From the NCBI GenBank assembly GCA_030324005.1, contig JARDVH010000031.1:18137806-18201805 (forward strand): DNA of 64,000 bases. Direction: 5' to 3'. Source of the DNA: Negaprion brevirostris (taxonomy: Eukaryota). Each line of letters opens with the position of its first letter. Position 1 is the first letter of the stretch. Below the pieces are notes generated by a model. It saw nothing but the letters and a program-made list of their open reading frames with translations, searched no databases and was not told the DNA's origin. Of the stretch, positions 46,401 to 49,400 are shown in pieces. A program made the translations under genes and the position numbers.

Positions 46401-49400
46401 TTTATCACCTTAGTTTTGGAAGGGTGGGATTAGGAATCACATAACCTCCCTTCAGTTTCCATTTGATTCCTTTCTCTTGGTAACATGAAATGTTACTGTG
46501 CTAAATGTACAGCTGTGCCTGTTGAATCGGTGGTCTTAAAACACTTATAACCATGCAGTGAGGTCCTAAAATGTTAATGTGGCATGGTAAAATAAACAAC
46601 CTGCCCTTACTGAACAGTTAAAAACACTCCTTGTATCATAGGTTTGAGTCACAGAGCTGCCTAAAACCCAAATCCTGCAGCTATATGTGTGACAAATTTC
46701 TTCGATGCCAGCAATATTGGATGCTTAATCTTCCAACCACACTTGCAGTGAGTTCCTTCATTTCTCAATCAGACAGCAAGGCAGGATATCTCATGTTTTT
46801 GGAGCACCTCAACTCTGACACTGGCCATCTTGCTCCACAGGATGCGTGCCTCTTGTCGACTGAGTATAAAGCGGCGCTGGCATCGACCTTGTGGAGAAGT
46901 CCGCAGCTTACTCAAACGTCCTCCCAGCTGAAGGAACCTGCATGGAGACCAGAATCCTTGAGAGGGAAAATGGAAATAAAAAACTGTAATGAAGAATCAG
47001 GAACCTGGGGTATGTTTGAGTCCCAACAGAGGCTGATTCTCTTGTCATGCAGGTATAGCTACCTCTTAGATTAGGCACCAGATAAGTCTGGCTTGCTGGC
47101 ATCCACTTTCAGAAAGACCTCAGCAAATTTCTGGCCTTTTCGCAGAGCTGAGCGTTTCCTCTTGTCCGCCAGGAGAATTCCACGGTACTTGTACCAGCCT
47201 TCCCGATCAGGTCCTTTGATGTTGCTAGACATTAAGGGTGGGACTTGGAAAATTTACAATTTTCAAAAAAAAACATCTTATTTTCCATCAAATTGTTTGC
47301 CATGTTGCTGCATGGTTCATTGTTTACTGCCTCTATTTTTTTTTGTTTCTAAGAGTAGTGTTTGTGTTTATTGTACAGTAATCAGTTAGTTCTAATTTCC
47401 CCTCCTACCCCTCAGCAGTTGACCAAGCTTCATCAGTTGGCTATGCAGCATACCCCCTTTACTCCCCTTGGGCAGACCACCCCTGGTTTCCCTGGTACGT
47501 ACCCACAGTGCCCTATTCAGCTCCTTTTCTCGGCACCTCTGTTTTTCTCTCTACTTCTCTTTCTCTCTCTCTCATAGTTTTTAAACAAATTGCAATGAAT
47601 GTATGTATTCAGTGCTTCAGGGTTTAACCTAAGCTTACTTAACTAGTGAACTTGTAAGATAAAATTGAATTAATTTCTATCATTCTTCTATTGATAACTT
47701 GCTTTTGTTTCTAAAAGGAAGTGAGTGTATAGTTTGAATGTGGATCAGTTTCTCATATGTATTTTAAGTTAAATTGTTAATCCAACAGTGTCCTTAATAC
47801 TTATAGTGTCAGTGGAATGAGCAACTGTTAAATGTTAATTGTTTCATGTTTTATATATAAATTTGCACTAAATAGCAAAATAGGTAGTGCCTGTTTCCAT
47901 GTTTGACAAAGTAATTTGAAATATCAGAAAGTTTCTTTTTTAGTAAACTGTTTAATTTCCAAACAAAATTTGGTTGATTTGACAAGTGTATAAATGTCCT
48001 GAAGATTAACCTGCAGCAAAACAGCTATGCACATTTCTAATGATTTTCACAAATTCTGCATGTCTGATGTATTAATGCAGCCTGACTGATGTCAGAATAA
48101 AGTAGCCAAATAAAAACAAATGACTTGCCCTGCATACTTAGCTGAATTTTTCCCCAAACCAGAAAGGTTTTGCAGAATCACAATACAGCGAAAAGAGTCA
48201 ATGGCTGATCTGATTGTAGTTTGATAGCCAGGATCTTTGCTCAGCATGGAAGTTTCCTATAATGAGATGTTCCACTTCATGTGCAATTCTAATGGCGGTT
48301 TAAAATAATTACAGCTGATAAATGCATGGTTTCTAGTAACTGTCATGCAGGATGCCGCAGTGCATGTTTTAGTCCTACTTTGCACAAAATTACATGCATT
48401 GCATCTTTATTTCATGTCTAAAATATATAAATAATTAGATCCTGATCTCAATGCAAGTCAAGTGCATGGGAGGAGTTCTATTTGCCCATTGCACATGTGC
48501 CTCTTGTCTGAAAGCTATCCACTTAATCCCATTGCCCTGCCCTTCATACTCTTGTAATTGTTTCTAAATCAAAATTTATCCACGTTCTTTTTTAAAGGCT
48601 ATTTTGGTTTCTGGTAATCATATAATAGATTATGCTAAATGCAGTAACTGTTATAGAGTCTAATCTAAAAGCTTCAGCAAAGACCTGCTGTGATAAGAAA
48701 AGATGAGTGATTTGCATAGAATAAGCTCATGACTAGATGACATTATATAGTTAGAAGCTGGATGCATATCCACTGTTGCTAGCCCTTGGGATAATTAGTG
48801 CTTCTCATTATTGTCATTCACTTTAATTCATGTCTATCACTAGCTAACTGTGATGCAATTATATAGAAATCTGCAAAGTTGAAAATCAAAGTGAAAAGTG
48901 CAACATTAAAACAACAAAATTAAATTAATCCAAATTGCACAGGGGAAGAATGCAACAGGACAATGAGCCTTCTCCCATCACACTGGGTGCTTAACATAAA
49001 AGACATCTTCCACAGCAGACCTCCATCTCATGATCCATATCTGCGTGCTTGTTACAAATGGAAAGTGCCTGAGCTAAAGGCTAGCAATTTACATCACTAC
49101 TAGAAATAATTGAGGATTTCCAGCGAGATTCCTGATCAGTTGAAAAATGCCACAAGAATAACGATTACAGATGAAAAATAAACCCATATCAGATTGAACA
49201 GCAAGAAAATAATTTGAGAACAATGAAATTTTTTGTGCTAGTTTAAACACATCCCAAGAAGGTGTATTAGTTTACATGGATAGAAGCACTGTGGAGTTCA
49301 CTATATAACGTGACTGAGTAATTCAGACCAGTGCACTTAATATCTCAAGATCTTTGTATCAGTAGAAATCTTGCATGCCAACAGTTCATATATTATCCTG

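Follow-up and report, generated by a model that had tools for sequence, protein, structure and literature searches.

A pair of non-homologous alternative exons, frame-filtered and probably NMD-filtered, in the KH2–KH3 linker of cartilaginous fish PCBP3

Introduction

The IIIb and IIIc exons of FGFR2 are tandem duplicates that alter a folded domain. In C. elegans, the exon pairs 14a/14b of tom-1 and 5a/5b of ttx-7 are mutually exclusive without being homologous, and the fidelity of their splicing depends partly on NMD (available text of PMC4165533). In the PCBP family, the linker between KH2 and KH3 is the region in which isoforms differ and the site of the PCBP1/2 localization signal, which PCBP3 does not have (available text of PMC9701828). 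In mammals, C-rich pyrimidine tracts mark cassette exons that are enhanced by alphaCPs, as described in the available part of PMC4797308.

The exon that is the subject of this study lies in the linker region of PCBP3 of a shark. The same exon is found at the same place, and in all four splice states, in the isoform sets of cartilaginous fish PCBP3 in RefSeq and UniRef (XP_041057486.1 from Carcharodon, XP_007888863.1 from Callorhinchus), where it appears only under numbered isoforms. An earlier note made from the DNA letters had called the exon hidden, which is wrong, as RefSeq models contain it, often as isoform X1. The exon is thus already in public gene models, which lowers its discovery value. 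Our literature search, with subscription journals and supplements outside its scope, returned no description of such an exon switch in shark PCBP3, and the available sections of PMC12481019, PMC7392665, and PMC7498679 are silent on the splicing of PCBP3 itself.

Results

The analyzed window is a stretch of 64,000 nt, whose + strand contains the PCBP3 gene, recognized by the peptides of its KH exons. Pfam detects KH_1 in three stretches of the Mustelus homolog, and the three KH domains together with the matching exon peptides place the gene in PCBP3. With the exception of the new exon, the exons of the window are 88–100% identical to those of Callorhinchus PCBP3; PCBP3 orthology is in this sense based on names and identity. 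The features are compiled in Table 1, in which exons are numbered as in the earlier note. At positions 51075–51200, the window resembles what we take to be the head of a tRNA-derived SINE.

Table 1. Positions of the PCBP3 features in the window
Feature	Position	Strand	Description
Exon 8	43636..43677	+	42 nt, phase 0 at end; joined to the new exon in proteins of relatives
Acceptor of new exon	46815..46840	+	CTGAC as possible branch point, A at -23 (consensus match only); weak pyrimidine tract interrupted by purines; CAG
Alternative (new) exon	46841..47009	+	169 nt (3n+1), phase 0 to 1, 56 aa, 7 K/R and 7 D/E, predicted disordered
29-codon ORF in +1 frame over 5' half of new exon	46842..46931	+	Holds all 7 CpGs: NCG in main frame, Arg CGN in +1
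Acceptor-like site inside new exon	46913..46927	+	Would yield an 82-nt exon of phase 0 to 1
GT-AG intron between new exon and exon 9	47010..47415	+	406 nt; TGCATG at 47309; spliced out in both-exon models of relatives
Acceptor of exon 9	47390..47418	+	CTAAT resembling a branch site, A at -21; tract rich in C; tandem CAG CAG; conserved in the C132 paralog
Exon 9	47416..47494	+	79 nt (76 nt from second CAG), 26 aa, 4 Pro and 5 Thr
Exon 10	50703..50755	+	53 nt; acceptor common to new exon and exon 9; both-exon stop at 50734
Exon 11 (KH3 core)	56158..56327	+	170 nt; skipped in some models; decides NMD-rule status of off-frame forms
Last exon, coding part	62943..62979	+	Normal stop at 62977

The segment 46841–47009 is a real protein-coding exon of PCBP3. 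Four runs were placed on positions 46400–47370, and in run X11, which is recorded as RNA-seq, a 187-nt contig with a depth of 5.6 covers 46852–47011 without any difference. The 27-nt loose end of this contig corresponds to exon 10 from 50705, and the shared letters GT put the junction at 47009>50703, with exon 9 being skipped. It is the only one found in reads, in one contig of one run, of the junctions that the earlier note had listed as a check. This RNA junction and 135 stored proteins that carry the new exon without exon 9 bear out the claim that the new exon can stand in for exon 9. As the contig begins 11 nt inside the new exon, the acceptor is shown only through models of relatives, in whose proteins exon 8 is joined to the first residue of the 56-aa peptide. 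The three other runs did not cover the new exon (nothing in X7, and intron pieces only in X2 and X13), which proves nothing. Exon 8, the new exon, and exon 10 are also joined in two GenBank proteins of Callorhinchus from outside RefSeq, AFM91020.1 and AFK11363.1, which probably originate from the collection of full-length cDNAs made from six non-neural tissues that is described in the available text of PMC3466250. In Callorhinchus, both single-inclusion forms are modeled, with the new exon in P0053 and with exon 9 in P0152 and P0158; the exon 9 form is known from the latter two models, and reads of the species analyzed here gave only the new-exon junction.

The 56-aa peptide is present in PCBP3 models, mostly from RefSeq, of 22 named species that comprise sharks, rays, skates, and one chimaera, with identities from 98% in Mustelus down to about 80% in rays and the chimaera. 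The exon is conserved across cartilaginous fishes, with a fixed length and no stop, and the length is exactly 56 aa in all 144 stored carriers. The 15 variants of the peptide have 26 invariant columns, which include three Trp and one Tyr, and their 38 substitutions are more conservative than would be expected if single bases changed at random (p = 0.008); selection was judged here on protein substitutions. In comparison with Callorhinchus, 46 of the 56 residues are identical (82%) without any indel, so that the new exon changes faster than the other exons of the gene (88–100%).

All matches obtained in two database searches with the peptide were chondrichthyan (56 matches from 71 candidates, and 63 from 63). 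When the flanking exons served as bait, which resulted in 2362 matches from 2976 candidates, 67 carriers with at least 118 bits were found among the best 120 that were listed, and the next match had 57. The lower-scoring ones of these 120 mostly carry exon 9, which in tetrapods is usually followed by an unrelated exon of 20 aa. No carrier was seen in annotated PCBP3 of bony vertebrates among the matches listed, and no similarity was seen in the linkers of the 53 lower-scoring ones, for which 71 or more of 200 shuffles reached an equally good score. These searches depend on shared five-residue words and cover predicted proteins only, so that unannotated or diverged remnants could escape. The earlier note had mentioned a similar peptide in non-mammalian PCBP3 predictions; such predictions do exist, but their range narrows to cartilaginous fishes. 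This distribution may reflect either a gain of the exon in cartilaginous fishes or its loss in bony vertebrates.

Four PCBP loci are present in the genome of the shark. At the three paralog loci, which are on C132, C163, and C30, we found no similar exon, with C30 being a short, only partly readable contig that contains a gap of about 5.6 kb of N. On C132, exon 9 encodes the same peptide as in PCBP3, but exon 10 is divergent and intron 8 has 455 nt. When the genome was searched with the new exon, there was one match at the DNA level and two at the protein level that are attributable to chance (E values 0.98 and 2.1), so that no repeat origin was seen. Pfam assigned the 56-aa peptide to 0 families, the matches in the PDB cover KH domains and none of them lies over the new exon, and the best feature score in an Atlas search was 0.80, which is a lead only. 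A likeness of the end of the peptide to a linker mini-exon of PCBP2 was considered and dropped.

With exons joined by coordinate, the new exon alone or exon 9 alone leaves the frame open to the normal stop, in agreement with what had been predicted, whereas inclusion of both leads to a stop in exon 10 and omission of both to a stop at 56159 in exon 11. Either exon alone thus keeps the frame, both or neither break it, and each of the two single forms is made. Among 222 stored proteins, 135 contain the new exon alone, 66 contain exon 9 alone in frame, 9 contain both, 7 contain neither, and 5 are fragments or aberrant; these proteins are mostly automatic models that were retrieved with queries for the new exon, and their counts are not abundances. 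RefSeq models rest on transcript alignments. The both-exon models come from six species (Chiloscyllium plagiosum, two Scyliorhinus species, Narcine, Mobula birostris, and Hypanus) and the neither-exon models from three (Scyliorhinus canicula, Callorhinchus, and Hypanus). With these 9 and 7 models, a strict either/or switch, as originally proposed, does not hold.

The distance rule of NMD concerns stops that lie more than 50–55 nt upstream of the final junction. In forms that retain exon 11, the distance to this junction is 189 nt for the both-exon stop and 166 nt for the neither-exon stop, as the rule demands. In forms that skip exon 11, it shrinks to 19 nt for the both-exon stop, and the neither-exon form stays in frame until the normal stop (P0073, P0111). 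This KH3 exon is missing from 16 stored models, all of which terminate three residues after entering the last exon in a shifted frame. As exon 11 skipping places the off-frame forms outside the rule, the filter would leak KH3-less proteins, and KH3-less PCBP3 generated in this way would escape NMD. The claim that double inclusion is cleared by NMD therefore agrees with the distance rule for products with exon 11, but clearance, which we infer, cannot be complete in view of the 16 models that skip it. Taken together, the two exons are non-homologous alternative exons that are frame-filtered and probably NMD-filtered. We regard it as likely that the frame-preserving either/or reflects two competing cassette exons, one of which replaces the exon 9 segment, with off-frame products likely being thinned by NMD.

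Unproductive splicing is described as typical of RNA-binding proteins (available text of PMC11062102). The new exon could in principle also serve mainly to be joined with exon 9, thereby shifting the frame and lowering PCBP3 via NMD, with the in-frame form being a by-product. The both-exon models from six species, whose stop lies 189 nt before the last junction, would fit with such a poison cassette, as would the nucleotide-level constraint in the 5' half of the exon that is described below. However, the one RNA junction seen skips exon 9 and is in frame, and the premature stop arises only together with exon 9. In addition, 101 new-exon models run on into KH3, the exon has its fixed 56-aa length, no stop, and conservative substitutions, and the in-frame form is found in the two GenBank proteins from outside RefSeq, which makes a role as poison cassette unlikely.

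With regard to how two competing cassette exons could exclude each other, the earlier note had rightly considered the spacing, an intron of 406 nt, to be too large for steric exclusion. Besides this intron length, we rejected steric exclusion because exon 9 has its branch-like site at -21 and is preceded by no more than 24 nt without an AG. An incompatibility of U2 and U12 splice sites was rejected as well, since the donors GTATGTTT and GTACGTAC and the AG acceptors, when compared with the U12 consensus, are both U2-like. Exclusion by RNA structure, in which the donor of the new exon pairs with exon 9, would also account for the near-invariance of exon 9 described below. There is an inverted repeat at 47007–47030 and 47433–47456, and the 10-bp duplex of -16.5 kcal/mol is equalled or beaten by only 7 of 865 gene tiles. 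However, 485 of 2000 synonymous exon 9 recodings pair equally well, two of eight other donors have equal or near-equal partners within 600 nt (-17.5 and -16.3), and in the local fold, the donor of the new exon preferentially forms a short hairpin. The C132 paralog, which does not have the new exon, possesses the same exon 9, and both-exon models exist. The duplex between donor and exon 9 exists and is not significant against the controls, and a structure-based exclusion is in our view very unlikely.

The two exons show no similarity, as had been stated: equally good scores are reached by 799 of 1000 shuffles at the DNA level and by 1215 of 2000 at the protein level. A tandem exon duplication, that is, a homologous mutually exclusive pair, was discarded on this ground and because of the lengths of 169 versus 79 nt.

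The new exon had also been described as rich in CpGs. It has seven in its 169 nt, with an observed/expected ratio of 0.68 versus 0.27 in the window, and only 3 of 378 bins of 169 nt in the window reach this number, but such a content is ordinary for coding exons of this gene: the new exon has 4.1 CpGs per 100 nt, inside the range of 1.6–5.3 of six other coding exons, while exon 9 has 0. More unusual is their position, as all seven are in NCG codons within the first 29 codons (7/13 versus 9/101 elsewhere, p = 3e-4), and the substitutions favor first codon positions in the 5' half, with a ratio of 13:2 as compared with 4:9 for the 3' half (p = 0.006); both tests are post hoc, having been picked after the pattern was seen. 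The same seven CpGs constitute the seven Arg codons of an ATG-to-TGA ORF in the +1 frame, which ends at the internal acceptor-like site. The pattern shows a putative nucleotide-level constraint beyond protein selection alone, for which a splicing element is a plainer reading than a second frame.

In the latter case, the 5' 87 nt would additionally encode an Arg-rich +1 peptide of 29 aa, for example as a uORF of a KH3-only transcript that starts in intron 8 and uses the internal Met of the exon. The CpG codon bias, the coincidence with the Arg codons of the +1 ORF, the first-position substitutions, and the end of the ORF at the internal acceptor-like site would all be explained thereby. However, the upstream coding exons end in phase 0 (two of them as judged by protein frame), and splicing would thus not enter the +1 frame. 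Provided that Callorhinchus uses the same Leu codon as the window, its Leu13-Thr14 would introduce a stop into the +1 frame, and the chimaera sequence probably breaks the ORF in this way. Furthermore, the exact +1 peptide was absent from the protein collection searched, the tests are post hoc, and a helix rich in Ala, Ser, Thr, and Pro or a splicing element could yield the same bias, and we therefore give dual coding very little credence. The internal acceptor-like site is used by no stored protein, as the peptide is complete, with 56 aa, in each of the 144 carriers.

All particulars of the exon that are given in the earlier note were confirmed, namely the coordinates, the length of 169 nt, the acceptor (...CTTGCTCCACAG), the donor (G|GTATGT), the open frame, the peptide, and the distance of 406 nt from exon 9. 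A scan for stop-free, phase-matched segments between AG and GT identified one unrelated candidate in the same intron, and one acceptor with two donors in an intron of a paralog. As such open segments occur by chance, the case for the new exon rests on outside evidence, and it is above chance thanks to the RNA junction and the conservation. That it is a cryptic or mispredicted exon without function, which might be argued from the chance segments in these introns and from the predominance of automatic models among the carriers, can be considered as already refuted and has practically no probability left in view of the RNA junction and the 82% identity to the chimaera without indel.

In its DNA sequence, exon 9 is almost frozen. 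It is 97% identical to its counterpart in the C132 paralog, with only 2 of 24 same-amino-acid codons differing; eight other exons taken together differ in 116 of 228 such codons (p = 5e-5). The branch region, the pyrimidine tract, and the donor align with the paralog as well. Its shifted-frame reading in the nine both-exon models of sharks and rays is at most one residue off that of the window, and read-through models from two bird species and one teleost show the same acceptor and donor translations as the window, with the acceptor appearing as PPTPQQ in the two birds. At the tandem CAG CAG acceptor (47413–47418), both sites are used in models of relatives, in which the first Gln is either present or absent. 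The near-freeze, which is a new observation, points to an old regulated exon, as far as can be judged from such comparisons.

The acceptor tract of exon 9 consists of 50% C, and exon 9 with its flanks contains 8 C-runs, which is the maximum in the window. An alphaCP motif matches here with one mismatch, as do 62 of 210 background YAG sites, and at the acceptor of the new exon, no alphaCP motif was found within one mismatch. Among 12 acceptor sites tested, the only exact match of the gene to the C-rich alphaCP motif is at the acceptor of the last exon (62919–62942). Feedback of poly(C)-binding proteins on exon 9 may thus be taken as a lead and not as a result. A more far-reaching reading, which we put forward as tentative and rather doubtful, is that exon 9 could be a PCBP-sensing feedback exon that predates the split of PCBP3 and the C132 gene, and that a chondrichthyan "rescue" exon would have turned it into an isoform switch set by poly(C)-binding activity. 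If true, skipping of exon 9 would be unproductive in other PCBP genes, and a control of abundance would have become a linker-isoform switch in cartilaginous fishes.

The hexanucleotide TGCATG, which we take to be an RBFOX-type motif, occurs at 46939 and 47309, and two copies in 1.4 kb are near chance. The copy at 47309, between the two exons, could favor the new exon and disfavor exon 9; no difference was listed for it in contigs of two other organisms.

At the protein level, the swap exchanges a Pro/Thr-rich segment of 26 residues, one of them charged, for an unrelated segment of 56 residues, of which fourteen are charged. The earlier note had proposed an exchange of the KH2–KH3 linker; the exon 9 segment is indeed exchanged, but it is only part of a linker of roughly 100 residues. 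In the AlphaFold model of a Callorhinchus isoform, the three KH domains are folded and linker residues 171–270 have pLDDT values below 50; the structure model of the exon 9 form is poor, with a mean pLDDT of 47.2. In both models, the alternative segment begins with a short helix of low confidence, to which we attach no evidential weight. As judged from these models, the effect of the swap is most likely a longer charged tether with different short motifs.

In-frame donor extensions at 34957–34968 (4 aa after the KH2 exon) and 39662–39730 (23 aa, next exon) are used in many models of relatives, and the linker is thus variable at several points. In P0104 and P0105 from Callorhinchus, exon 9 or the new exon is joined to a short terminal segment that starts with Glu-Lys, like the tetrapod mini-exon; no match to this segment was found in intron 9 of the window.

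Discussion

Our preferred reading of two competing cassette exons can be put into a sequence of steps. Exon 9 would be an old regulated exon, whose inclusion is probably aided by poly(C)-binding proteins at the C-rich acceptor. When exon 9 is weak, the upstream new exon would preserve the frame. NMD would clear those both-exon and neither-exon forms that keep exon 11, whereas forms that skip exon 11 would escape as KH3-less proteins. The swap itself may alter the length of the linker and its motifs for partner binding or modification and would leave the KH folds unchanged.

Sharks and chimaeras split about 400 million years ago, and the pair is a clean vertebrate example of alternative exons that did not arise by duplication and that has been kept since this split. 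The near-freeze of exon 9 suggests that a vertebrate-wide PCBP3 exon, which is usually deemed ordinary, is controlled at the level of splicing. The swap falls into the linker in which PCBP isoforms differ and PCBP1/2 bear their localization signal (available text of PMC9701828).

In tetrapods, PCBP3 has a linker mini-exon of 20 aa, which, like the shark exon, lengthens the KH2–KH3 linker. However, this mini-exon comes after exon 9, adds to it in frame, and has no similarity to the shark peptide, and no match to it was found in intron 9 of the window. With the alphaCP-enhanced cassettes described in the available part of PMC4797308, exon 9 shares the C-rich acceptor, but its motif match has one mismatch and is common in the background.

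As proposed here for PCBP3, NMD filters double inclusion of the IIIb/IIIc exons of FGFR2, likewise in a vertebrate gene (cited in the available text of PMC4165533 and PMC6071210). Unlike these exons, the PCBP3 pair is non-homologous and resides in a linker that is predicted to be disordered. With tom-1 and ttx-7, the PCBP3 pair has in common the unrelated sequence, the unequal length, the 3n+1 size of both exons, the frame being kept by a single exon, and an intron beyond the steric range (available text of PMC4165533). The NMD dependence of tom-1 and ttx-7 was shown in a smg-2 mutant, whereas that of the PCBP3 pair is deduced and would have an escape route by exon 11 skipping (same source). 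By analogy, the PCBP3 pair would work like the non-homologous 3n+1 pairs whose fidelity relies partly on NMD (available parts of PMC4165533 and PMC6071210).
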